64,000 nt of DNA from a virus. The translations under genes were made by a program, and so were the position numbers. The stretch's first letter is position 1. Every line of letters starts with the position of its first letter. The stretch is from IMG/VR virus record IMGVR_UViG_3300022751_000017, positions 27,187 through 91,186 of that record. One strand, written 5' to 3'. The notes below the pieces were generated by a model. That model was not told the DNA's origin, did no database searches, and saw only the letters and a list, made by a program, of their open reading frames with translations. This document shows positions 3,748-51,635 of the stretch, one piece after another.

Positions 3748-6700
3748 ATGCCGTTTAAATTTACGCAGTCTTTTAATAAGGGAATGAATATGGATTTCAG
3801 TGAATTGCGCCTACCACAAGATGCTGTGCAATTTATGAAAAACATGACTGCCAATGTAAACCAGAACACTGGGACTCCTGCCCAGTCTGGAGCAAATATG
3901 GATGTATTCTCTCCTCTGGAAGGGAATGCAGTGCTATCAGTAGCCTTACCTGGTGGGACTAACTATTGTGTGGGGTTCTATAGTAGTGAACAGACAAATG
4001 AGGGATATTTCTTTTTATGGAATAGCAACATGGACCATTCCATATGGGTAATAAGAGGAGATAGTGGACTCTGTGAATTGGTATATCATGGTAATTTGCT
4101 GCCGCTACAGCTGAATCCACTATATTTTATAGCAGAAGGCAGGTGCACTCTGGAGCTCAGGTCTTATGTAGACCCGGTAACAGGGCTTGAAACAAATTTT
4201 AAGTTCCTGATATTCACTAACAATACTATTCAACAATACTATATATCAGTAGAAGATTCTATAAACACAGATTCATTCACTGCACCGACAGGATATTTCG
4301 CCGGCGCCGGCACGTTTTATGATCCAATTACCTTGATACATCTGGGTGTTCCTACGCCTATAAGTGACATAGGAATAATCAAGGTGCCAATATCAGGTGC
4401 TGATGTTGGATTGCAGAATCAAACAATCAATCAGGCATTTCAATTCAGAAATAAAACCGTAGACGTTTTTGGACGAGAAAGCGAGCATGGCATTATAAGT
4501 CAAGTGGCGATAGATCGTGTATCTGGTGGATGCTATGGCAGCAGCAATGCGGAGTCAAGATGTTTTGATATTACGTTTGATGCCGGGAATCCATTGGTGG
4601 ATACCATATCCATAGAATATAGGACATGGGCTGGCAATGATACGGCTGCAGCACTACAAACCGGGTGGATAAAGTACGCCACCATAAATAAGTGGATAAA
4701 TTCTACTGGGCTGCAATGGTATGAGCGGTCTCCCAATACTGTATATTATAATCCAGTAACAAATCTGATTACTTATAGATTTTGTGCGGATCAGCAAAAT
4801 ATTCCCATACCAACAGAAGAAACGGCGCGGACAGAGCCTGGATTACCGAGATTATCCAGTGGGGTATTCTCGGTAAATAAGCGAATAGGTTTAGCTAATA
4901 ACGTAAGGAATTTTGAGCCTATTAGTCCGGTAGAGACTGACAAAATAAGTTACAGTGCTATTATCCCAGAAGCTCCTGATTGCGGGATATTACCTATGCG
5001 TAAAATAGTTGCTTATGCCTACATGTACAATTTTGCTAATGTACAGGCTGGGTATATGCAATACGAATTAATAGATGGGGTCAAGACTTATATATGGGGT
5101 AACCAGCGAGGTCAATGCGGTGATGACACTGGCAATGCGGTGAGATTAGATCAGGTTTTTGGCGATCAGGATAATCCTGGATTTATATTCTATCTGGCTG
5201 GAACCCAATACAACTGTGTTACTCAGTGGGGCGGCTTATTGCCATCTGGTGTTTTTACTCCATCTCCCATAATGGATGGCACCGGGGCATTCAATAGGAA
5301 TATTCTTGGAGAGCCGGTATGCCAAATAACGATAATGGCACCGCCTGGTAAGTATCTCCTGAGGGGCGCCTCTCACAAGGCTAAATTAACAGATCCGGAC
5401 TATCAAAACACCTCTACGTATATAGGAGGAATAATAGAGGTTAATGATCTTTATTCAACAGGGGATCCTTCAAATTATTCTTTCAATCCGATAAAGGAAA
5501 TAGAAATAGATTGTACATCAGGCGATGTTTATTTTAGAAATCCTACAGATCCAGCATTTCTGATTATTGACAATAGCTTTGGTGATACATGTATGGTAGA
5601 TGGATATTTGTGTGAACAGACTGGGGAGGGTGTTCCTGTAGAGATGAACCCGATTAACTTCTCATCATACCCAGATAATGCGATGCCATGCTATGGAAGT
5701 TGGTTTACCGACCATAATGGGTTCTTCTTTGGTGGGTGTCCTACGCAGGGTGTATATTTAGTAATAGCCTCTGATATATGTACGGGAACTTATGCTGTAG
5801 GAACCATTCTCAACAGCGGGATTGATGGAACATTTAAAGGCATATTGCATGGGGATGGTTCTGGAGACGGCAGCTACTGTACCGAATTAAGAAGTGGCAA
5901 TTGGAAAAATAAGGTTTATATATCACGTTCCGGCAATGTATTCCCAGCTAATGCGCGTCGTAAAATAACTCAGCAAATAAACTTGTGTGGTGCTGAAGGA
6001 GGGGTATCCAATGTGCCTGTAGTGATGACTAAGGGTGCTATATCATTTACGGACAGTGAAGGGATAGCAACAGTTATTGCGCATAACCGGACTAACTATG
6101 CAGCTGTGCCCTGGAATACATTGACATATCTCAACCCTATAGGTGTGCCAATATTCACAATAAATATACCGAATTACGGAGTGTCGCCATATGCAGATGA
6201 TAAATTGATAGTGACGCAACGGGGATATTGTCGGTGGACCAATTGCGGTGGCTGCGTACCTGCGGTCCCTGATCAGAATATAATATATCAGCCATGCGGT
6301 GGCTCAAGAGATACTACACTTTCTGATGTCACCATATCTCTTGAAAATATAAATGTTCAAGGGGTGCAGACTGGTGGTAAGTATGCGATGTGTTATTGGC
6401 TGGTTGATAATATTGGCCGGCGCACATTTTCTCAGGTGAGGCAAGGGGAGTCTGGATTTGTCAGCATGCCTAGTTTGAATGATATAGGATATTATAGGCT
6501 GCCCCAGATTGGATATACTATAGACCCGTCATTTACAGTGCCGTCCATTTTTAAGAAATTAATATTCGGGGTATCTGCTAATACTAATTTCACAGACTTC
6601 TTTTCGTGGTCTATTGATTACGTGCAGCAGGTTGATAACACAGGCAATACCAATACGGTCAATCCCACACAGACTAGGATATACTACGGCAGCCTTAATG

Positions 6701-25889: not shown

Positions 25890-27464
25890 ATGATAACCTA
25901 CGCTTTAACTCCCCAGCATGCTCCACGTCAGATATTTTCCGTTGGTGAGGCACAGACTCAGTTCCAGCCGTTCTCAGATGTCTACAGGCAACTGTGGGAT
26001 TTCGTGGAAGATGGCGGATTAGATGCCTTCGGGATAAACAAGGAAGACCTGGCGCGTTGGCGTAAAAACTTCCGTGAGGGAGTGGTGAACATTGGTGGTA
26101 AGCCATCAGAGATAGACTTCTTCCGTATGATGATGGGTGGCACTCCTAAGGAGACAAACGCCTCTTCAATCAGCGTAGAGTATAACAGTGCGTTGGACTA
26201 CAACATATACGCAGAGAATGATGCTACCGGCACCAACGGCGCTGTCACCAATGCATACTTTGGAGACCTGATAAACGGCACTTACAATGGTAACTACGTG
26301 GTGTTCGACATTGCGGTTGATACTTATGCAGATAACGGTACCAAGTCCAATATAAATGTTGGCGACCAGATATTCAACTACATAGATGGTAAGTATCTGG
26401 TGGTGATCAAGAAGGATGTAACCACTCCTTTTGCGCACCATATCTACTGCGCACCTTTCGATGGTAACTATACGCCTCAGATATATGCGAAGCAGCCAAT
26501 GCAGCCCAACCATATACAGCTGGTGTCTGGTTATAGCGATGCTACTACATCTGCGCCGCACAGTGAGTGGGAAACCCTCGGTTACATCAAGGAGTATAAC
26601 CCATTCTCTCTTCGTACAGACTGGGAAACACCGCGTAACCTGGAGAAGCCATACAAGGATATTCTGCAGTTCCCGATCATATTCGATATGCATACCGGTG
26701 CAGAGATGGACTCATGGGACTTCAAAGCGATGGCTGATGGCCGCGAGCGTATGATCATGGGTGAGAACATGATGTTCTTCACAGGTGAGCAGCTGACCAA
26801 TGTAAGCCTGATATCAAATACATATACAAACCAGTATAACGGTTTTGAAGGGCTTCTGACCACCATCTGGTATGGCGGCGGCAATATACAGCAGTATGAC
26901 AATAGCTATGGTTACGACCTGGATGTTGACTTCATGCAGATGGTATTCTCAAACGATGCACTGAAGAAATCTCAGGAGTTCCTGTTCCTGGCCGCAAAGC
27001 GCTGGATATACATGATGGAGCGCCGTAGCCAGGATATGTTTAAGAATAACTCAGGGGCATGCACTTTTGATACGTTTGAGCGTATGGGTGATGAGCGTGC
27101 CGATCTGAAGCGCCTGGGCATCAACTCATACGAGTGGAGAGGTTCAACAATGCATATCAAGGAAGTCGGTGCATGGTCTGACAGCCGCTGGGTAGGTAAT
27201 GCTTATTTCCCCGCTATGGCTATAGTTCTGCCAGGCGATGGTCTTACAGACAGCAAGGGCAATAAAGTATCTCCGGTTGAGTACTGGATACCAGCAGGCC
27301 GTAGAGTGTCTGGAACATGGCAGGAAGAGTGGAGAGACCACATGAAGCTTTCAGATAAGGCTGATAAGTTCTCAGGTACCATTACTCATGACATTATGAT
27401 GAGCGTGAACGGAGTGGAAAATATGTGGGCAGTGATGCCGAAATACATTGTGAGCAATTCTTAA
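25890..27464 (+). CDS. Major capsid protein (HK97 fold, crAss-like)
   Basis: 524 aa; position; ENMMFFTG...GFEGLLTTI..GG motif; strongly C-ending codon bias suggesting high expression. Confidence 0.8.
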   Translation: MITYALTPQHAPRQIFSVGEAQTQFQPFSDVYRQLWDFVEDGGLDAFGINKEDLARWRKNFREGVVNIGGKPSEIDFFRMMMGGTPKETNASSISVEYNSALDYNIYAENDATGTNGAVTNAYFGDLINGTYNGNYVVFDIAVDTYADNGTKSNINVGDQIFNYIDGKYLVVIKKDVTTPFAHHIYCAPFDGNYTPQIYAKQPMQPNHIQLVSGYSDATTSAPHSEWETLGYIKEYNPFSLRTDWETPRNLEKPYKDILQFPIIFDMHTGAEMDSWDFKAMADGRERMIMGENMMFFTGEQLTNVSLISNTYTNQYNGFEGLLTTIWYGGGNIQQYDNSYGYDLDVDFMQMVFSNDALKKSQEFLFLAAKRWIYMMERRSQDMFKNNSGACTFDTFERMGDERADLKRLGINSYEWRGSTMHIKEVGAWSDSRWVGNAYFPAMAIVLPGDGLTDSKGNKVSPVEYWIPAGRRVSGTWQEEWRDHMKLSDKADKFSGTITHDIMMSVNGVENMWAVMPKYIVSNS

Positions 27465-34059: not shown

Positions 34060-35148
34060 ATGCCTACCCAGTACGGAAAACAGGTAAAGACCATAAGCGA
34101 TTTTGTACGCACCTTCAGCCTTAAGCAAGGTAACACGAAGGCTGCGTACTTTGTGCGTAACCTGGAGTTTGCCGCATGGGCTTGGAAAGAAATGTTCAGG
34201 AAGAGCATCTGGGAGATAAAAACAGTAGTGCTTACCTTGGATAAAGATCATAATATCCGTATCCCGGATGATTGTGAGCGAATGGTAAATGTCAGTGTGG
34301 TAGACCGATTTGGCAAGCTGCAGCCGCTGTCGTACAACCCCAATATGAGCACTGTGGAAGTGATGTGTGAAACTAATTCTTGCGCATGTACTCATTGTCA
34401 TGGGAAGGATACCTTATGTGCGGCGGTGGAGAACATCTCAGTTGTATTTGAGGATATAATCATAGATGGGGAGACTTACCAGAAGGTCACTTATATAAAG
34501 GCAGATGGCTGCGGGAATATTATTAAAGAAGAGCACGTACCTGTAACAGAGGCGATATCCGAGAAAGTTGTTACAACAATTGTGACTACTTCTTTGTGTA
34601 AGGTAGAGGTAAGTGATAAGGGGTGTATATTGCCAACTGCCCCAAATATTAATATGTTGCAGACCTATTGCGGCTATAATGGGTCCATGCTGAATAATGG
34701 ATACCGTGGTAATGGGTTGGGTTATAACGCTTACCGCAGTTTAATACCGGTGCCATATAATTATTATGGACACTGGAACTGGAATGCTGCATGCCAGGAT
34801 ATTATCCATATATTCCGTAGCGCTGCAAATAACTGTACTTATATCAACCAGCAGGATACATGCACTGTAAACTGCGCCCAGGAACAGAATGACATTCATA
34901 AAGTTATTTTATCGTACCAGACCATAGGAGCAGAACCTGGCGTTGAAATATTAATACCGGAATATGCAGAGATGGCCATCAGTATAGGTATATTATACCA
35001 GCAGGCATTATTCAACCCTAAGGACATGGATAGGAATAATGCAATGCTCTACAAATTCAGGGCCGCAAAGAAAGACGTTGACCGGCATCTCAACCCTATC
35101 CGCATGGATGACATCATTAAAATTCAAACACAGCCACATTTGTGGTAA
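34060..35148 (+). CDS. Tail ring/tubular protein with a Cys-rich insertion
   Basis: IKTVVL...IPDD...VSVVDRFGKLQPL and ILSYQTIG...IPEYAEMAI motifs. Confidence 0.7.
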   Translation: MPTQYGKQVKTISDFVRTFSLKQGNTKAAYFVRNLEFAAWAWKEMFRKSIWEIKTVVLTLDKDHNIRIPDDCERMVNVSVVDRFGKLQPLSYNPNMSTVEVMCETNSCACTHCHGKDTLCAAVENISVVFEDIIIDGETYQKVTYIKADGCGNIIKEEHVPVTEAISEKVVTTIVTTSLCKVEVSDKGCILPTAPNINMLQTYCGYNGSMLNNGYRGNGLGYNAYRSLIPVPYNYYGHWNWNAACQDIIHIFRSAANNCTYINQQDTCTVNCAQEQNDIHKVILSYQTIGAEPGVEILIPEYAEMAISIGILYQQALFNPKDMDRNNAMLYKFRAAKKDVDRHLNPIRMDDIIKIQTQPHLW

Positions 35149-38089: not shown

Positions 38090-41000
38090 ATGGGCGATAA
38101 GAATAAAAAGACCAGCACGGATGCGTGGAGCGACAATGATCTTCCGGTAGTCAGCAACCCTAATGCGTCAGCCAGTCAATCATCATGGGATGACAATGAC
38201 CTCCCATTGATAGAAGATGCTCAAAAAAAAAGCCCTGTCGGTTCCGCATATGGCTTGGCAAACTCTTCGCAAGGTGGTCAGCCAGGCTACTCGCAGGCAG
38301 CGCCGATTGAGAAGGTAGACTGGAATACACCTTCTGCCACTATTGATATGCCTGAAGTGCGAGGCATCACTGTAAATAATTCAGGGAAGCCAATGGCTCA
38401 GGCACTTCCAGCCCAGCAGCCAGCCTCAGTGCCTAAGAAAGTGCGTCCGGCAGCCCACGATGCCACGTCACATATTGCTCAGGACTTTGTAGATAACATG
38501 GATAATCTTGCTCCGCAGTATAAATCTGCGGATGATTTGCATTACAGTGATGTCAACAACCCAATAAATAAGATAACCAATCCGCACGGAGATCCTGAGT
38601 ACACTGCTGGATATATTACATCGCGTCTGGCCCAGGCAAGGCAGGAGTATGAACAAGCCCGTAAGGACATGCAAGCTAGGGCTCTTCATGGAGAACTTCC
38701 TACTCAGGAACAACAAGAGGCGTTTGGTAATTTTACCAGGCAGATGGGAGAGTTGAATAAACTGAAGACATCTGCCGGTGAAATAGTCGCGCTGCAGCTG
38801 TTCAATAAGGACTATTCTACCAAGCATCACGATGAGTCAACCGCCAATACAGCTATCCAGGCTCTCCGAAACCAGAGGGAGGCTGCTATATCAGATATAG
38901 ATAAGAAAATACAGGGCACTTACAAGTACGAGCACCCAGACGGTACATATGCCCAGAAAGAGCGCAATCAGCTGGAGCGACAGAAGGCAGAAATAGCAAA
39001 GCACTATAACCAGCAACAGGCAGAGGTATGGAACCAGACTAAGTATAATCCCATAAATCTTGGTGCGGAATATGCCGCACTCATGGGTGATGCAAAAGCA
39101 AAAGAGGATGTCGAAAAACTCAGGCAGGGCAAGTCTATTGACCCAGCGGCCCAATATAAATATAACCAGCGAGGTGATGAGATTATCAAGTCCGGTACTG
39201 CCGCCGCAACCAATGAAAAAGCAAAGGAGGAGGGGACAAAACATCTGGACGTTTCAGGTGAAAGATTATTCAACAATAACAAGGACTACTTAATTAACCA
39301 GGCGCGGCAAAAAATAGGAAATAAGCGTTATAAGGATGAAAGTGCTCTTCTGCATGCTATAGTTCCATCTGTATTCTTGCCTAATATTTCAAAGGCTGAG
39401 ATCAAGAAGTATGCAGAGGAGGAAGGGCTGGACGAACGGACTACCCAGGAATTGCTTAAGGAACCTGGAGAGATACCTAAATCAGCCAGTTTTCTCCAGC
39501 AGATGGGTAAGTCCATGCTGAACACCGCTGCGCCAATTTACGAGCAGGGAATACGCAATGCAGTACGAATTGTCGGTGGTGATGAAGAGGCTGTAAATGA
39601 GCGCTTCCAGCCAGGATGGGAAGATAATGCCGGTATAGGATCTGTTATTGCTGGGAATATGCCAACTGAGCAGAATAGTTTCAGAAATATCCGCGGTGCG
39701 GTTGGCCAGATACTTGGTGGCGCAGCAGGACTATCCACATTTGCTGGCGAAGTTGGCATTGCAGAGAAGGGCCTGGCAGCACTAGGTATGACCGCCGGTA
39801 AAGCAGAGAAACTTGCTAATTTCGGCGTGATGGCCTTCAGTGGATACAATAATGCTTACCATGAATCTAAGGAAATAATAGGTGATAAACCGGAAGATGA
39901 GTCTAAGCGTCAGTTGTATTCTATGGTGCGCGGTCTTGCTGAAGGGTCTATATTTTCTATCCACCCACCATCCAATCTCGTAAAGAATGCGCTGGGTGAT
40001 ATGGAGAAGTCCGGCGAGCAGTTTTTAAATGAGCTCAAGAGCAAGCCTGTTGCTGAAGTGTTACGTAATAAGCCTGCAATAGCAGACTATGTGGTAAATA
40101 TGGCAAAGGATCTGGGCGTGCAGGTAACACTAGCCGAGGGCAACCAGATAGCTACCAACATCATCAATACCATATCCGACAACAAGAAGCACGACTTAGA
40201 TGAGGGTGTGGTAGAAACCGGCATAAGCACTGCGCTATCAATGGCCATACCTTCTGTAATGAGCGGGTTCCAGCATACGCACATGCAGACGCCACTCAAC
40301 AAGGCTGCCATATTTGAAGTGGGCTCACACCCGGAACAGTATGTTGACCATATCATGCAGATGCGTAATGAGGGCAAGCTTACAGATGCTGAAGCCAACA
40401 AATTGTACCAGGACATTCAAACGATAAATAAAACAGTACAGGTAACCCCAACACACAATACAGATGGAGAGCCACTTACGCCAGATCAGATAAAAGATTA
40501 TGCATTCAACCTGTTACAAGAGGGAGTGCTTACCAAGCGTGTGGATGAGATAAATAAAAAGGCGGAGTCTGCTGGAGTCATTCCTGATAAGGCGCAAACA
40601 TCGCCATTAGAGAAAGGAATATCTGAGCTCACTAAGCAGAGAGAGGAGATTATGAAAACTGCTGGTCAGGGCAGGCCTGTGGAAACACCGGTAGAACAGG
40701 AAGCGGAAGAAAATATTCCTGAAGAAACAAAAGAAAATAATATACCTTTATCATCTGATAATTCCTCATCTAAAAAAGAAGAAAATGAAAGCATCACCAG
40801 CATCAAAGACAATGAAGGGCGGCAAGATGGCCCCGAAATCGAGCGGAGCGAAGAAGACGGGTCCGAACCCGAGCTTCGGAGCGCAGCCGACAGTGAAGGG
40901 CGGAGCCAACAAGAAGAAGATCGGGTACTAAGTTCCGAAAAAGGGAACGAGAAAGAGGCTGCTCAAACTGAGCAGCCTTCTGTCGTTAGGCAAAGAAGTA

Positions 41001-43351
41001 AGCGTAAGTATGCATCTGATAAAGAGGTAGTGTCAGATCTTGGACAGGAGCCATCGAAAGAGCCTATTGAAATACCTGCAGAGGAACCGAGCCAAACCGA
41101 TGCCGCAGTTCCTGAGAAAGCAGAAGAGAAGCCCATCGAAGAACCAGCCGTACAAGAGATCGTTGCAACGAAGGCAAGTGAAGATCCGCTTCCGGCACCC
41201 AAAGAAAGTATTCCTGTATCAGAATTAAACCAAGAAACAGATGCCAGTCCGCAAGCCCAAGCCCAACAGCGAGAAGGGCTTCAACCAAGCGGTGAGCAAG
41301 AACCTGCACGAGTTGAACCAGCCGGAAGTGAAGAAGCGTCCGCAAGCGCAGAAAGTAGCAATAGCGCTGAGCGAGGCGAGGCGAAAGAAATAACCCTACC
41401 TGAAGGCTTCACCACCCGTAAAACCAACGAGACCCGCAAGGACGGCAAGAAAATATTTACTAAAACTGAAGGAGATACCACGCATACGGTTACAGTAAAA
41501 AAAGATGGAACTGCAGTAGTGGAGTCCGTAGATAAATCATCTGGTATTGGTGTAGGTGAGCATTCAAAAACATATGCTGCAGATATCCAGGACTTTGACT
41601 CTCTTGAATCCGCTATAAAGCACGTTAATGAGTATGGTAAAGAAGTGCAAGCGGAAGCGCCGGTAGAAGATACGCATACCACCCGGATTAAAGAAATAGA
41701 CGAAGACCTGCTACGGCAGCGCGCTTCGCAAAAACTGGAGGCCGACAAGCGCAACAAAGCGGATAAGGCCAACAACATAGAAGCCTTCAACAAGGCTAAT
41801 GAGAACTGGTATAAGAAGCAGGAAAGAATAGATAAGCTTGAGGCTGAAAAGTCTAAGATGATTGCTGATCGCAGGTTAAAAGAGCGAGAGGTGCAAATCA
41901 AGGAGTCTTATAGTGCTGCCGCGGATAAGATAAGCTCTATGTATGAGCGTAATAAAAAAAGGCATAAAGGTATTGCTACTGCAAGTTTTACCGGGCTATC
42001 TCATAAAATAGCAGATCACGTCATGGACTTTCTGGTTGCTCGTGTAGTGGATGGGGTGAAAGAGCTAGGGAATATACATGTAGCTATTGACAGGGCCATA
42101 CGAATGGCTAAGGAAAAATATGGCGATGAAGCAAAAAAAATATCCCAGGAGGATGCGCTTAAAATAAAGGAGCATATAGGATATGAGATGCCTCCACAGG
42201 ACAGTGAGCCCGTACTATCCCTGCAGGATGAGGAGGTTGCCAAGCTTGATATAGCGGATATTGAAGCCGGAGTACCATATATAGAAGTAGTGAATGACAT
42301 ATTGAATGATGAAGGGCTAACTGACAAGAAGAAATCAAAAATCCTTAATTACATAGACTGGCATGTACAGGATAGAGATTATCACAATTCGCAGACACTA
42401 AGGGGTAAGAAGTACGATGGTAAATATCTTACAGGCTATGAATTAAAAAATTCCGATCAGATAAGCCCATATTTATCCGGCCACACATTGAAAGATGTGC
42501 ATGATCAGGATGTTCAGTTTGCTGTGAATTCAAAGGAAACGCAGCTGCTCAAAGGCTTGGTAGAAGATACTGCAAATATGGTAGGCCTTGCCAAAAGTCA
42601 TTCCGGGAGCGATGATGTTCTGGTGTATGGCACCGAGATGCTGGGCCACATTAAGAGCATGCCTGATGGTCCAGATGGACTTACGGTAAAGAAGCTGCTT
42701 GCCGTATCCGGGCTGAACAATGAACTGCACGGAGAGCGCATGCGCCTTGAGGAAGAAGCGATTAAAGCCAAGCCGGAGAGAAAAAATGAAATCAGTAACC
42801 GGCTGAATCAGATAAATAAGATGATTGCCCAGGCAGAGATCATGTACCGGGATATCACGAGCAATGCATCCAATGTACTTAATGCGGCCAGGGCAAATCG
42901 TATATTCAGAAACACATACTTTGCAGAGGAATTTGCAAACAAGATATTATCAGAGCAGCAGCTTTCAGCAAAAGAGGACATAGAGGGTGCGATGAGCAAT
43001 ACTACCATACCGGATAAGATAGTAGAGCAAGGTGCCACTGTAGATGCCAGGAAAGCAGAAAAAGACATTGAAGATATTATAGAGCAGAAGAGCAAGTCAG
43101 AGGCAGGACAGAACGTAGAGAGTGATATTACCAGCCAGAAAGAAACAACCAAGCCTAAGAGCAAGGGAAAGTCCCAAGGGGTAGTCGATAAATTACGTGA
43201 GCGCATCCGTAAAAAGAAGAAAGAGGGAGATGCGCGCGAAGAGGTGATAGATAAGAAGACTGCAGAAAAAAAGGCTAATGATTATCTTGCAGGCGCCACA
43301 CTTGAGGATTTATTTAAGAAAGCTAAAGAACAAACCAAGAAGCCATGCTAA
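38090..43351 (+). CDS. Large internal virion/ejection protein 3
   Basis: 1753 aa; Gly/Ala membrane-insertion-like region; acidic linker; single Cys as the last residue. Confidence 0.7.
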   Translation: MGDKNKKTSTDAWSDNDLPVVSNPNASASQSSWDDNDLPLIEDAQKKSPVGSAYGLANSSQGGQPGYSQAAPIEKVDWNTPSATIDMPEVRGITVNNSGKPMAQALPAQQPASVPKKVRPAAHDATSHIAQDFVDNMDNLAPQYKSADDLHYSDVNNPINKITNPHGDPEYTAGYITSRLAQARQEYEQARKDMQARALHGELPTQEQQEAFGNFTRQMGELNKLKTSAGEIVALQLFNKDYSTKHHDESTANTAIQALRNQREAAISDIDKKIQGTYKYEHPDGTYAQKERNQLERQKAEIAKHYNQQQAEVWNQTKYNPINLGAEYAALMGDAKAKEDVEKLRQGKSIDPAAQYKYNQRGDEIIKSGTAAATNEKAKEEGTKHLDVSGERLFNNNKDYLINQARQKIGNKRYKDESALLHAIVPSVFLPNISKAEIKKYAEEEGLDERTTQELLKEPGEIPKSASFLQQMGKSMLNTAAPIYEQGIRNAVRIVGGDEEAVNERFQPGWEDNAGIGSVIAGNMPTEQNSFRNIRGAVGQILGGAAGLSTFAGEVGIAEKGLAALGMTAGKAEKLANFGVMAFSGYNNAYHESKEIIGDKPEDESKRQLYSMVRGLAEGSIFSIHPPSNLVKNALGDMEKSGEQFLNELKSKPVAEVLRNKPAIADYVVNMAKDLGVQVTLAEGNQIATNIINTISDNKKHDLDEGVVETGISTALSMAIPSVMSGFQHTHMQTPLNKAAIFEVGSHPEQYVDHIMQMRNEGKLTDAEANKLYQDIQTINKTVQVTPTHNTDGEPLTPDQIKDYAFNLLQEGVLTKRVDEINKKAESAGVIPDKAQTSPLEKGISELTKQREEIMKTAGQGRPVETPVEQEAEENIPEETKENNIPLSSDNSSSKKEENESITSIKDNEGRQDGPEIERSEEDGSEPELRSAADSEGRSQQEEDRVLSSEKGNEKEAAQTEQPSVVRQRSKRKYASDKEVVSDLGQEPSKEPIEIPAEEPSQTDAAVPEKAEEKPIEEPAVQEIVATKASEDPLPAPKESIPVSELNQETDASPQAQAQQREGLQPSGEQEPARVEPAGSEEASASAESSNSAERGEAKEITLPEGFTTRKTNETRKDGKKIFTKTEGDTTHTVTVKKDGTAVVESVDKSSGIGVGEHSKTYAADIQDFDSLESAIKHVNEYGKEVQAEAPVEDTHTTRIKEIDEDLLRQRASQKLEADKRNKADKANNIEAFNKANENWYKKQERIDKLEAEKSKMIADRRLKEREVQIKESYSAAADKISSMYERNKKRHKGIATASFTGLSHKIADHVMDFLVARVVDGVKELGNIHVAIDRAIRMAKEKYGDEAKKISQEDALKIKEHIGYEMPPQDSEPVLSLQDEEVAKLDIADIEAGVPYIEVVNDILNDEGLTDKKKSKILNYIDWHVQDRDYHNSQTLRGKKYDGKYLTGYELKNSDQISPYLSGHTLKDVHDQDVQFAVNSKETQLLKGLVEDTANMVGLAKSHSGSDDVLVYGTEMLGHIKSMPDGPDGLTVKKLLAVSGLNNELHGERMRLEEEAIKAKPERKNEISNRLNQINKMIAQAEIMYRDITSNASNVLNAARANRIFRNTYFAEEFANKILSEQQLSAKEDIEGAMSNTTIPDKIVEQGATVDARKAEKDIEDIIEQKSKSEAGQNVESDITSQKETTKPKSKGKSQGVVDKLRERIRKKKKEGDAREEVIDKKTAEKKANDYLAGATLEDLFKKAKEQTKKPC
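40785..40931 (+). CDS. Overprinted (+1 frame) 48-aa Lys-rich basic protein
   Basis: MKASPASKTMKGGKMAPKSSGAKKTGPNPSFGAQPTVKGGANKKKIGY; A-rich leader; upstream TACCTTTA; downstream 10-bp hairpin. Confidence 0.65.
   Translation: MKASPASKTMKGGKMAPKSSGAKKTGPNPSFGAQPTVKGGANKKKIGY
40956..40978 (+). terminator. Hairpin after the nested ORF
   Basis: AGGCTGCTCA-aac-TGAGCAGCCT; weak U-tract. Confidence 0.5.
41241..41393 (+). CDS. Overprinted (+1 frame) 50-aa basic protein, DUF6496-like
   Basis: MPVRKPKPNSEKGFNQAVSKNLHELNQPEVKKRPQAQKVAIALSEARRKK; ends in the Q..AIALSEAR signature. Confidence 0.75.
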   Translation: MPVRKPKPNSEKGFNQAVSKNLHELNQPEVKKRPQAQKVAIALSEARRKK

Positions 43352-48648: not shown

Positions 48649-49344
48649 ATGACAACATCAATACTTAATGATGCGCTCCTGCTTCGTGCTGAGCCTGTAG
48701 ATAAGCTAAGAGAATATTTTAGCTCTATAAACGTCACTATATTCGATGATATCTTAAGCCGTGCACCTGTAGAGGGCAAGAACACAATCAGAACCCAGGA
48801 GCCTAAGCAGATAGTATTGTTTATCCTCACAGCCTACAGCGAGGACAGCCCATTGGTAATACTGCGTCAGGATGCAAAGGAAGAGAAAGAGGGTATCTGC
48901 GAGTACCTGGGCATTCCGGATTATATGCGCAGTGACCTGATCAACCTGAAAGACCCTATGGTTAGGAGTGCGGTTACCCAATACCTGGAGCAATTTGCGG
49001 GTTTTGAGTTCAAAAATCTGATGTTCATGAAGATCCAGCTCAGTGACTTTGAGAGTGACATCACCAACCGGCGCTACCGGTCAGAGAGCGTAGTAGAGGC
49101 CGGGAAAGACGGAGAAGGCAATTCTATAAAGACAATTGAGTATTACTACGACATCAAGGAGCATGGCAAGGCTGTCTCAGAGACCCTGCGCCTATCCAAG
49201 AGCATCAATGCATTGGAAAAGGAGATAAAGGCCAGCCAGGGCACCTACAAGGCCATAGATGAAATAAGGGAGTGGAAGACACATTCTAATCATAAGGGTG
49301 GCAAGACAGTGAAGCGCGGCGGGGCAGAAAACTATATACGCTAA
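48649..49344 (+). CDS. Putative terminase small subunit
   Basis: Translationally coupled to TerL; helical, basic C-terminus VKRGG. Confidence 0.5.
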   Translation: MTTSILNDALLLRAEPVDKLREYFSSINVTIFDDILSRAPVEGKNTIRTQEPKQIVLFILTAYSEDSPLVILRQDAKEEKEGICEYLGIPDYMRSDLINLKDPMVRSAVTQYLEQFAGFEFKNLMFMKIQLSDFESDITNRRYRSESVVEAGKDGEGNSIKTIEYYYDIKEHGKAVSETLRLSKSINALEKEIKASQGTYKAIDEIREWKTHSNHKGGKTVKRGGAENYIR

Positions 49345-51635
49345 TGGTCAAAACATATAACGAGGGAGACAGGATAGAGATACAGATAGGAGAGCACATA
49401 TTCACTACGCCGCCTATCCCTCCTAAGAAAGAAATACTATTTCACGACAAGAAGAAAGAGGATCAATACTGGGTGCGCCAGCGCGACCTGCCGCAGATAT
49501 TCTACGACTGGCATGACGACCCACATTCACTTGGGCATGGAGTAGAGGAAGATTGTAAAAAGACCAGGTACCACCCAGACACCAACATACTTATTGAACT
49601 AAGCAAGGAAGATACCATACTATTATTCGGGAATAAAGAAGAGGATGGCATAGAGGGATTCCTACCCAGGGAGATGCGGCGCCGTAAAGAAGGTGTCTGG
49701 TTTTTCAACAATGGCGAGCCTACCTATCTTACCGGTAATCATTATTATGCCCTACAGTGGGGCGCTATGCTTGGTTGCGATAACTCCGTGGAGCCAGGTA
49801 GCAGCTATGGTCAGTATTACCAGTTTCAGAGAGATGGCATCTTCTACTATTTTGAGATATGCAAGACTACTCCTAATGGCAGAGGTGGTTTATTAATGAA
49901 ACCGAAGAAGACAGGTGCTACACAGGCCGCTTCGCTCGTACTGGCCAATGAAGCATCTACCGTGAGGGAGAAGAACATCCGCATGATGTCCATAACGGAA
50001 AGCCTGGCTAAGGAATCCAACTTCTCATTTATAAAATATGCGCTGGGCAAGATGCCGGCGATACTGCTACCATCGAGATCCAAGCAAAATGAAGGGGAAG
50101 TTGTGTTCGGGCCGCCAAACTCATCCCGTAATCCACTCAAGAAGCGCAAGAAGTCAGATACCGAGTACCTGCATACCTGGCTGTGCACAGTCCCTACTAC
50201 CAAGACTGCATTCGACTCATTCACCAATTATATAGCGCTTATAGATGAGTTCCCTAAGATAAAGGAGAACACATACCCAGAGGAGCTGTTCCTGACTACC
50301 ATAGTAACTGTAATGGAGGGATTCCGGCGCAAGGGGACTATATGGGCCATGTCCTACACGCCAGAGCAAACAGACCGAAGCTTTTATGAGGCGAGGCAAT
50401 TATATAAGGACAGCAAGCTTAAGACGATAAAAAAAGAAGGCGGAGAAACACAATCAAAACTCATATGCCATACGCTCACTGTTCAGGAGGGTATGTTTGG
50501 TTGCTGCGACAAATATGGTAAGCCAATCTTACCTAAAATATGGGCTGCTATCAACCAGGAGATGGATGATGTTAAGCACGATCCAATAAAACTTCAGGCA
50601 GTAAAACGCCAGTACCCGACAAATGAGAATGACCCTTGGCAGGAGGGCAGCAGGGAAGATTCACTATTCGATAACATGAGGATAGGCTTACAGATGCAGG
50701 AACTTGAAGAGATGCAGTCCATGGGTGTATTTCCTTACGAGGATTTTAACCTGGAGTATGATAGCGATCCGGTAAAAGATCCTAAGTCAAAAAAATATAT
50801 TTTCAAAGGAGACATTAAGTATATCCCCGTAACCGATGATCAGAAGCGTGCAGGTGCAGCACATGGGAAATACAAGTGGTACGATAAGCATTGGACCCCT
50901 GAGTGGTTTCTGCAAAGGCATTTGAACAAGCTGATTATCCATAAAAAGAATGGATTGCTTGCTCCGAGGCTGGATTCTCCGTTCTTTATATCTATTGATC
51001 CTACTGCATGGAAAACTAAGAAGACGACAGGTGTGGGCAGCTATAATGCAATACAGGCATTTATTTTGCCAAATCCAGAGTTAGATTCAGCGCTCGGAGA
51101 CAGAGTTACCAATAAGCGATTGATGATAGAATACTTGTACCGGGAAGATAAGCCGAGTGAGACCTTGCATGCCATGATAAAACTCATTCTCTATCTTGGA
51201 TGTATGGTACAAATAGAGTCTAATATGGCAACTTGGGCGGAGTCTCTTGAAGAAATGGGGCTTGGCAATTTTCTGTTAGTAATTGATGATGAAACGGGGG
51301 TATTAAGGCCATGGCGCGAAGGGGCCAAACAGCATTGGTTTACTTCCCAAAAGGATACTATAGGATGGTATGTAACCACTGGGAAGGAGCATTTGGGCGC
51401 GCCGGTAAAGCCGGAAGATATTGACAACATTAAATATAACAAAAGTGTTGCTGTATTATCGCAGCTGGCCAGGTTTAAAATAGAAGATACAAAGGAGTTT
51501 GATGCTGCAGTGGCTTACCTGGAAGGAATCATGGGAATAAATGCATGGATAGGATGGAAAAGCGCAGAGGAGCAAAGAAGGAGTAAAAGAGGAGATGGAT
51601 CTATGAGACAGATGATGGGTATATTTGGCAGATAG
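49344..51635 (+). CDS. terL: Terminase large subunit
   Basis: GVWFFNNGEPTYLTG.HY..LQW; Walker A-like MKPKKTGAT; Walker B LIDEFPK; RQYP; nuclease ISIDP, IES, FDAAVA. Confidence 0.92.
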   Translation: MVKTYNEGDRIEIQIGEHIFTTPPIPPKKEILFHDKKKEDQYWVRQRDLPQIFYDWHDDPHSLGHGVEEDCKKTRYHPDTNILIELSKEDTILLFGNKEEDGIEGFLPREMRRRKEGVWFFNNGEPTYLTGNHYYALQWGAMLGCDNSVEPGSSYGQYYQFQRDGIFYYFEICKTTPNGRGGLLMKPKKTGATQAASLVLANEASTVREKNIRMMSITESLAKESNFSFIKYALGKMPAILLPSRSKQNEGEVVFGPPNSSRNPLKKRKKSDTEYLHTWLCTVPTTKTAFDSFTNYIALIDEFPKIKENTYPEELFLTTIVTVMEGFRRKGTIWAMSYTPEQTDRSFYEARQLYKDSKLKTIKKEGGETQSKLICHTLTVQEGMFGCCDKYGKPILPKIWAAINQEMDDVKHDPIKLQAVKRQYPTNENDPWQEGSREDSLFDNMRIGLQMQELEEMQSMGVFPYEDFNLEYDSDPVKDPKSKKYIFKGDIKYIPVTDDQKRAGAAHGKYKWYDKHWTPEWFLQRHLNKLIIHKKNGLLAPRLDSPFFISIDPTAWKTKKTTGVGSYNAIQAFILPNPELDSALGDRVTNKRLMIEYLYREDKPSETLHAMIKLILYLGCMVQIESNMATWAESLEEMGLGNFLLVIDDETGVLRPWREGAKQHWFTSQKDTIGWYVTTGKEHLGAPVKPEDIDNIKYNKSVAVLSQLARFKIEDTKEFDAAVAYLEGIMGINAWIGWKSAEEQRRSKRGDGSMRQMMGIFGR

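Follow-up and report, generated by a model that had tools for sequence, protein, structure and literature searches.

Introduction

Among the closest described systems are the Rz/Rz1 pair of phage lambda and the 18.5/18.7 pair of phage T7, in which a small gene lies wholly inside a larger gene of the same strand, in the +1 frame. The lambda Rz/Rz1 spanin pair may be embedded, overlapped or separated, and its inner gene routinely escapes gene callers (PMC6139136). Overprinting in viruses, which leaves one stretch coding and constrained in two frames at once, is described as the de novo birth of a gene in the second frame (reviewed in PMC8227390). Polyvalent proteins are multidomain proteins with swapped effector domains and virion or packaging neighbourhoods (Iyer et al., 2017; PMC5512222), and the paper describing them contains none of the words "overlap," "frameshift," and "linker." The present study concerns a locus that bears a likeness to each of these systems: a small open reading frame (ORF) nested at positions 41241–41393 (+ strand) inside the gene of a giant phage protein (38090–43351, + strand) in the IMG/VR virus record IMGVR_UViG_3300022751_000017. 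The DNA analysed, referred to below as the window, is the right-hand 64 kb (64,000 nucleotides; record positions 27,187 to 91,186) of this 91,186-bp record, and all coordinates are those of the window unless a locus is named.

It is very probable that the 153 bases concerned are dual-coding, specifying an acidic linker of the giant protein and, one base downstream, a complete and old gene for a basic helical hairpin of 50 amino acids that is related to DUF6496. The nested frame is +1 relative to the host ORF [(41241 − 38090) mod 3 = 1], and the nested ORF (41241–41393) is contained entirely in its host (38090–43351), as is the inner gene of embedded same-strand pairs of the Rz/Rz1 type. Translation from the ATG at 41241 to the TAA at 41391–41393 (50 codons plus the stop) yields exactly the peptide quoted in the initial annotation of this stretch, which had taken the ORF for an overprinted gene resembling a free-standing small phage protein, and the leader given there, AATTAAACCAAGAAACAG, is present at 41223–41240. 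The peptide has a computed isoelectric point (pI) of 10.8 and a charge of +8.6, whereas the host-frame reading of the same DNA (41240–41392; 51 residues, host residues 1051–1101) has a pI of 4.2 and a charge of −7.2. An AlphaFold2 (AF2) model of the peptide places helices at residues 11–26 and 35–48, with a predicted local distance difference test score (pLDDT) of 76.6. No paralogue of the module was found in the 91-kb genome.

Homology to a Small Phage Protein Family

The initial annotation had proposed a resemblance to DUF6496-like small basic proteins. The direct matches stayed below threshold. Against the Pfam profile of DUF6496 (PF20106), the peptide scored 15.5 bits (E = 0.022), residues 30–49 being aligned with profile positions 33–50 of 58, and in a six-frame search of the genome the nested ORF scored 13.6 bits; against phrog_2423, the E-value was 0.0046. 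These matches are indecisive, because 89 control shadow ORFs taken from the window reached E-values as low as 0.009. No match was obtained by a word-based search with the peptide alone, by a search of NCBIfam or by a fold search of the predicted viral structures in BFVD, and tblastn against GenBank phages returned only E-values of 4 or above. The only match in the PDB, to TAL-effector repeats, was rejected as a repeat-summed chance motif that does not reflect homology, in which the heptad QVVAIA, repeated 12 times, coincides with the family motif QIVAIA (residues 37–42 of the nested peptide, P0001).

By contrast with the direct profile matches, the link to a family through intermediate sequences is significant. 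A phmmer search of 1.84 billion representative proteins with the nested peptide returned a single match, P0022 (49 aa, 57% identity, E = 1.3e-4), which aligns with it from Met1 through the C-terminal lysines. A profile built from P0001, P0022 and a cluster mate, P0023, and run against 5.8e9 proteins, recovered 18 further proteins of 42–65 aa (P0024–P0041; E-values down to 1e-11), some of the members being called on contigs of 23–84 kb; five of the matches (P0033, P0034, P0036, P0037, and P0040) carry PF20106. The family is unnamed (members P0022–P0041 and L013–L086); its consensus is MPLKK..K..NIKEL...G.KPR..KQIVAIALSEARKKK, and its signature can also be written MPLKK..NIKEL..QIVAIALSEARKKK. 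The window peptide aligns with the family end to end (alignment A4) and retains every invariant column, namely the MP start, the L of NIKEL and the Q, V, A, I, and A of QIVAIA; at near-invariant columns it departs by I22L, K23H, and I38K. With a hidden Markov model (HMM) of the family from which it had been left out, the nested ORF scored 54.3 bits (E = 1.8e-15), whereas no other sequence among 2725 six-frame fragments, taken from this genome and from unrelated contigs, scored above 5 bits. Of 21 aligned members, 13 match PF20106 (E ≤ 0.1) if the sub-threshold match of the window peptide itself is counted, and the best of these matches reaches 34.7 bits (E = 2.4e-8). In the ESM Atlas, DUF6496 is annotated on 16% of the members of a neighbouring cluster, which is a lead only. 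Thus, the nested ORF belongs by true homology to a family with free-standing genes as well, and the resemblance to DUF6496 is real, being reached only through this bridging family while the peptide's own score lies under the Pfam cut-off. The name adds no function, because no paper mentioning DUF6496 was found in the literature searched.

Information in Both Reading Frames

The openness of the nested frame by itself is no more than chance and hence is no evidence of a gene. In a null model in which the host protein was kept and its synonymous codons were redrawn from the codon usage of this genome, a +1 ATG ORF of at least 50 codons arose at this place in 43% of 5000 trials, and the nested ATG recurred at the same place in 68% of the synonymous re-codings. 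Stops in the +1 frame can form only where a host NTA or NTG codon stands before A or G. Such codons belong to Leu, Ile, Val, or Met, in which the linker is poor (13% of host residues 871–1101, a fragment with a charge of −34, are hydrophobic or aromatic). The basic charge of the +1 peptide likewise follows from the acidic host reading, because GAR codons read one base on are ARN, giving Lys, Asn, Arg, or Ser.

The sequence of the peptide is another matter. Among 20,000 synonymous re-codings of the host linker, the family score had a median of −0.2 bits and a maximum of 21.3 bits, and 20,000 shuffles reached at most 16.5 bits, against the 54.3 bits of the real ORF. In the reverse experiment, 20,000 re-codings of the small protein contained on average 4.8 stops in the host frame and left it stop-free in 0.18% of cases (P = 0.0018). 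In free-standing members of the family, the host-like frame contains 3.6 stops on average and is open in 8 of 41, whereas nested copies by definition have none; therefore, an open host-like frame over about 50 codons is not the default for the small gene. These two results, together with a host-phase periodicity downstream of the overlap, indicate that the outer frame has been kept open by selection. The information in neither frame is a by-product of the other, and the stretch meets two coding constraints at once. The composition of the DNA is in keeping with its content: G+C amounts to 56% at 41241–41393, as compared with 42.5% genome-wide, an island that arises because T is avoided at third positions of the nested ORF (1 of its 50 codons ends in T, as against 29% T at third positions in the genome's genes).

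The Host Gene and Its Homologues

The host gene (38090–43351 in the ORF list) encodes, by translation, a giant protein of 1753 aa and lies in a structural and packaging region, with a virion structural protein at 34060–35148 and the large subunit of terminase at 49344–51635. The window host protein has no match in Pfam or PHROG. Nineteen homologous proteins, 33–53% identical overall, were collected; those of 1943–2630 aa carry PF00300, PF18763, PF02195, and acetyltransferase domains, and PF00583 and PF18760/PF18762 also occur among the homologues. From the variable domains of the homologues and the packaging neighbourhood, the host gene appears to encode a giant protein of the polyvalent type.

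Twelve of the 19 homologues hold a gapless 51-residue stretch that is homologous to the window linker and stands beside different downstream domains. Over this stretch, their host-frame identity to the window is 14–29 of 51 residues (27–57%), and the substitutions are non-conservative on average (mean BLOSUM62 −0.1 to −0.6). The best +1 peptide that each homologous protein allows was determined by dynamic programming over codon choices and scored with the family matrix. All 12 stretches are fully compatible with the +1 pattern MPL..N[ML].EL..VAIA.SEAR.KK; the two halves of the best +1 peptide, which score 44–51 and 43–63, are exactly contiguous in each of the 12, whereas in homologues without the stretch the best +1 score over the whole protein is at most 29–38. 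The observed score was never reached by permuted or BLOSUM62-conditional substitutions (0 of 1000 in each of the 12), and with the window peptide as sole target the z-scores were 3.3–6.6, as compared with values near 0 for two negative controls, the +1 ORF at 41100–41228 and the homologues lacking the module. In the 12 homologues, the invariant Ala comes after D, N, or H (an NAT codon), which preserves the ATG, and at the column of Ser44 the host pairs are either R preceded by E, K, or Q or G preceded by I or V, corresponding to the serine codon families AGC and TCG. It is therefore likely, by an upper-bound argument from proteins, that compatibility with the +1 frame has been kept in the window's clade while the linker has drifted. 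DNA of relatives of the host gene was not found in GenBank phages (blastn and tblastn), IMG/VR, or GTDB genomes; a search of IMG/VR with the linker pattern gave eight matches, all unrelated, and a scan of JGI metagenomes for host relatives gave one locus of 3 kb, which ends before the linker.

Nested and Free-Standing Copies in Other Phages

A scan of IMG/VR with the family alignment identified 74 loci. About 40 of these are free-standing copies, and 20 are nested, all of them in the +1 frame of same-strand open frames of 760–3132 aa. On four further contigs, longer in-frame proteins of 112–296 aa begin with the family sequence (L018:6001–6486, L031:6001–6339, L043:6001–6891, and L058:6001–6888), and two of these proteins have histidine-rich tails. 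BLAST sorts the giant hosts of the nested copies into at least six groups with no links between them, and some of these hosts have SNF2-helicase or GNAT domains; the window host gene is not BLAST-similar to any of the giant hosts in IMG/VR and brings the number to at least seven. In the family tree, which is poorly resolved, there are about seven changes between the free and the nested state, two of which are forced by well-supported branches. The initial annotation had proposed a general gene-nesting strategy, and for this family the proposal is supported by the 20 nested copies and the number of their host groups.

Because DNA is available for these loci, selection on each frame can be read from the codons. 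Differences fall on positions 1/2/3 of the ORF codons at 0.31/0.26/0.44 in nested copies, which is close to the 0.29/0.25/0.46 of free-standing ones. By the Nei-Gojobori method (75 pairs), the proportions of synonymous (pS) and nonsynonymous (pN) differences among nested copies are 0.33 and 0.10 in the ORF frame as compared with 0.12 and 0.17 in the host frame, that is, pN/pS is about 0.3 in the former and at least 1 in the latter. Furthermore, three clades show a switch of codon phase at the overlap. In L048 and its kin, the changes at host positions 1/2/3 number 302/264/324 upstream of the overlap, 9/3/2 inside it and 107/89/180 downstream; with 14 changes in 177 columns, as against 890 in 1388 upstream, the overlap stands out as conserved within a very variable stretch. 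The nested copies in other phages are thus under purifying selection in their own frame, a result obtained at the DNA level; for the window's clade, such selection is indicated indirectly, by the codon compatibility of proteins.

The nested start codon is also retained. The ATG is present in all 21 nested copies, the window's included, and the host residue there is always D, N, H, or Y, an NAT codon. Six nested copies (L019, L020, L021, L029, L030, and L084) have AGGAG or GGAGG 5–9 nt upstream of the ATG, whereas the remaining ones, like the window's, have A-rich leaders. The leaders of the nested ATG in L077 (5976–6000) and in the window (41222–41240) share AATTAAACCA about 9–10 nt upstream, and those of the L045 clade share ACTAAAAA; such shared sequences may represent a leader element or what is left of a former gene junction.

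The Probable Start of the Nested Gene in the Window

The leader of the nested start in the window (41223–41240) is A-rich and G-poor and has no Shine-Dalgarno (SD) site, and SD-like 4-mers precede only 5 of 93 gene starts in this phage. Its score in a position weight matrix of start contexts is −0.39, which lies at the 17th percentile of the gene starts; among internal out-of-frame ATGs, this score ranks in the top 15%. The unpaired probability at the nested start, 0.61, is close to the gene-start mean of 0.60 and is in the top 12% of the ATGs of the host gene. SD motifs point to an own start of the inner gene in six SD-using relatives; in the window, an SD-less phage, the leader is A-rich and accessible but not distinctive. 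The nested frame is closed five codons upstream of the ATG by a TAA at 41226–41228 (host TTA-A), so that the open stretch up to the TAA at 41391–41393 (host ATA-A) comprises 54 codons.

Origin and Possible Function

The arrangement of the free-standing copies suggests how nesting may have arisen. In ten loci (L042, L059, L068, L070, L071, L076, L078, L079, L081, and L082), the free small gene, at about 6001–6153 in some of them, is packed between a gene of about 433 aa (305–434 aa on these contigs) and a gene of about 960–1260 aa. Upstream, the junction reads TAA-T-ATG; downstream, it reads TAATG except in three loci, which have TAATATG. At the TAATG junction both neighbours are in the −1 frame of the small gene, whereas at the TAATATG loci the downstream gene is in another frame. 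The free-standing copies in these ten loci are translationally coupled on both sides. The flanking genes in the ten loci have no Pfam or PHROG match, and in general Pfam and PHROG give almost no annotation for the neighbours of free-standing copies or of the window gene. In L070, the gene downstream of the small gene shares homology with the C-terminal portion of the giant host proteins of L021 and L019. Where both neighbours are in the −1 frame of the small gene, loss of the upstream stop would yield the nested arrangement, and the host residues over ATG-CC in nested copies are Y/D/N/H-Ala, as this route predicts.

The probable course of events is that an upstream head-region gene lost its stop and was then read through the small gene, in the latter's −1 frame, into the downstream cargo gene. 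The synonymous sites of the small gene would subsequently have been purged of T-ending codons, which would hold the big frame open. In the window, the small protein would be made by internal initiation at the ATG at 41241 on the late mRNA of the host gene, ending at the TAA at 41393, and initiation would use the kind of A-rich, unstructured leader that is typical of this phage's genes. The suggestion in the initial annotation that an already existing gene had been taken up out of frame, leaving the acidic linker as its shadow, fits the −1-frame neighbours, the evolution of the overlap in the phase of the ORF and the non-conservative substitutions in the host frame.

As to function, only a tentative guess can be offered, namely that the small protein acts inside the capsid with the giant protein, binding DNA or neutralising the acidic linkers of the cargo during packaging or ejection. 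The guess is made because copies of the family lie after portal or head genes (a portal gene is near the family copy in L062) and before or inside virion-type giant proteins. It is also tempting to speculate, with considerably more doubt, that nesting is itself functional, the basic hairpin being a dedicated partner of the giant cargo that neutralises or chaperones acidic linkers, including the one encoded by its own DNA. If so, the partner would stay attached to the cargo gene through any shuffling of polyvalent domains, and this would explain the capture of the small gene, always in the +1 frame, by at least seven host-gene groups unlinked by BLAST.

Alternative Explanations

Several points weigh against the view that the 153 bases are dual-coding and that the small gene functions here. 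The window peptide does not reach the Pfam gathering cut-off for DUF6496 (24 bits), and its copy is on a long branch of the family tree (1.11), the longest terminal one, with NLHEL in place of NIKEL and QKVAIA in place of QIVAIA. Conservation in the window's clade rests on a best-case (upper-bound) compatibility of protein sequences with codons and not on observed codons. The start context is compatible rather than distinctive, as 15% of internal out-of-frame ATGs score equally well, and no promoter-like or Bacteroidota −7-box site was found near the ORF, which would therefore probably be read from the host gene's mRNA by internal initiation. In a search of sequencing runs, only the probable source run was found to carry this DNA, and it is DNA and not RNA. 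The proposed function is guessed from gene order and charge only. The long branch, two changed near-invariant columns and the unremarkable start would suit a relic, that is, a small gene absorbed by gene fusion that is still recognisable and is no longer translated here, so that only the giant protein matters. On the contrary, the 12 host homologues, at 27–57% identity, all keep full compatibility with the +1 frame, including the ATG (host D/N/H followed by A), although an unselected frame would have decayed over such divergence; moreover, the nested copies in other phages have a pN/pS of about 0.3 in the ORF frame. A relic is thus unlikely.

The other explanations fare worse. If the ORF were a compositional shadow, an acidic linker poor in L/I/V/M would simply yield no +1 stops and read as basic, and both the ORF and its Pfam match would be due to chance; the frequency of such ORFs among host re-codings (43%) and the sub-threshold DUF6496 and PHROG matches, which lie in the range of the control shadow ORFs (E down to 0.009), are in line with this. 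However, 54 bits stand against at most 21.3 in 20,000 re-codings, the match to P0022 is full-length with an E-value of 1.3e-4 among 1.84e9 proteins, and both free and nested homologues exist with DNA, so that the explanation is refuted by the phmmer match, the family profile search, the leave-one-out HMM and the re-coding maximum, and its probability is negligible. Programmed frameshifts are common in phage structural genes, and the strand and the +1 relation of the frames would fit a slip just before 41241 producing a truncated protein of 1050 residues with a basic DUF6496-like tail. This route is very unlikely, because the +1-frame TAA at 41226–41228 leaves only 12 nt before the ATG for the slip; in addition, the ATG is retained in all 21 nested copies, SD sites precede it in SD-using phages, and the family is made elsewhere as a free protein starting with MPL. 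Marginally less probable again is an error of assembly, in which an indel would have falsely fused two genes across a free-standing small gene. The window comes from a single metagenome assembly and the three genes are separate and tightly packed in some phages, but the 51 host-frame codons contain no stop, against an expectation of 4.8, and a contig from an independent (Logan) assembly of the probable source run is identical to the window over 40500–42000 at a depth of 42.6. Furthermore, none of the 19 homologous proteins, which come from other assemblies, is interrupted at the module, and 20 nested loci exist elsewhere.

Neighbouring ORFs in the Linker

Two other +1 ORFs lie in the same linker. 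The ORF at 40785–40931 (+ strand; 48 aa, rich in Lys and Gly), which the initial annotation had included in the supposed nesting strategy, gave z-scores of 1.5–4.5 in 17 of 18 host homologues in the compatibility test of protein sequences; this intermediate support leaves that part of the proposal less firm, and the ORF may be a second nested gene. In the ESM Atlas, it had a low recognition value (1573), its first match (0.92) being to an unnamed cluster of 46-aa proteins. The ORF at 41100–41228 (+ strand; 42 aa from an ATG), which lies between the other two, gave z-scores of −1.3 to 1.9 and behaves as a plain shadow with no signal of conservation. In the host frame, the linker at about 40730–41000 (residues ~880–970) has the motifs NEG.Q.G and GR.QQEE followed by a basic RRK/KRK patch in nearly all 19 homologues, those without the DUF6496-like module included; these motifs may reflect either a function of the host frame or another nested frame.

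Implications and Comparison with Known Systems

The locus indicates that a linker of a giant phage protein can be the by-product of a second and older gene that annotation pipelines skip; the small phage protein family is therefore systematically under-counted, and acidic linkers in polyvalent or cargo proteins deserve to be regarded as more than spacers. A family found both free and nested, with DNA, is a clean natural system for the origin of same-strand overlap by stop loss and read-through and shows how two frames share synonymous sites, in the reverse of de novo overprinting. The small gene can be knocked out by single-base changes that are silent in the big frame, which provides a testable handle.

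No paper describing this nested gene was found in the literature searched. Its product resembles DUF6496 (PF20106) and PHROG 2423 in being small and basic and in the C-terminal motif KQ[IA]VAIALSEAR, whereas the phage family has its own N-terminal half, MPLKK..NIKEL. The arrangement, which is that of Rz/Rz1 in geometry, shows some substantial differences to that pair. The two products are not a known functional pair; the outer gene, of 1.7–3 thousand codons, appears to encode a protein of the polyvalent type, and the overlap falls on a disordered linker; the inner gene is the older one and has become nested in host genes of at least seven groups that BLAST does not link. In addition, nested and separate states occur within one family tree, which was not found for the embedded families in the survey of PMC6139136. 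The giant hosts and the homologues of the window's host gene resemble polyvalent proteins in their swapped domains, here SNF2 helicase, GNAT, His-phosphatase, and ParB-like domains, and in their virion or packaging neighbourhoods, but nested genes in linkers are absent from the architecture described for that class (PMC5512222). Compared with overprinting, finally, the direction is reversed: the short frame is old and widespread, and the long frame is the newcomer, which reads the small gene as a linker and whose substitutions look unconstrained (mean BLOSUM62 below 0, pN/pS at least 1).

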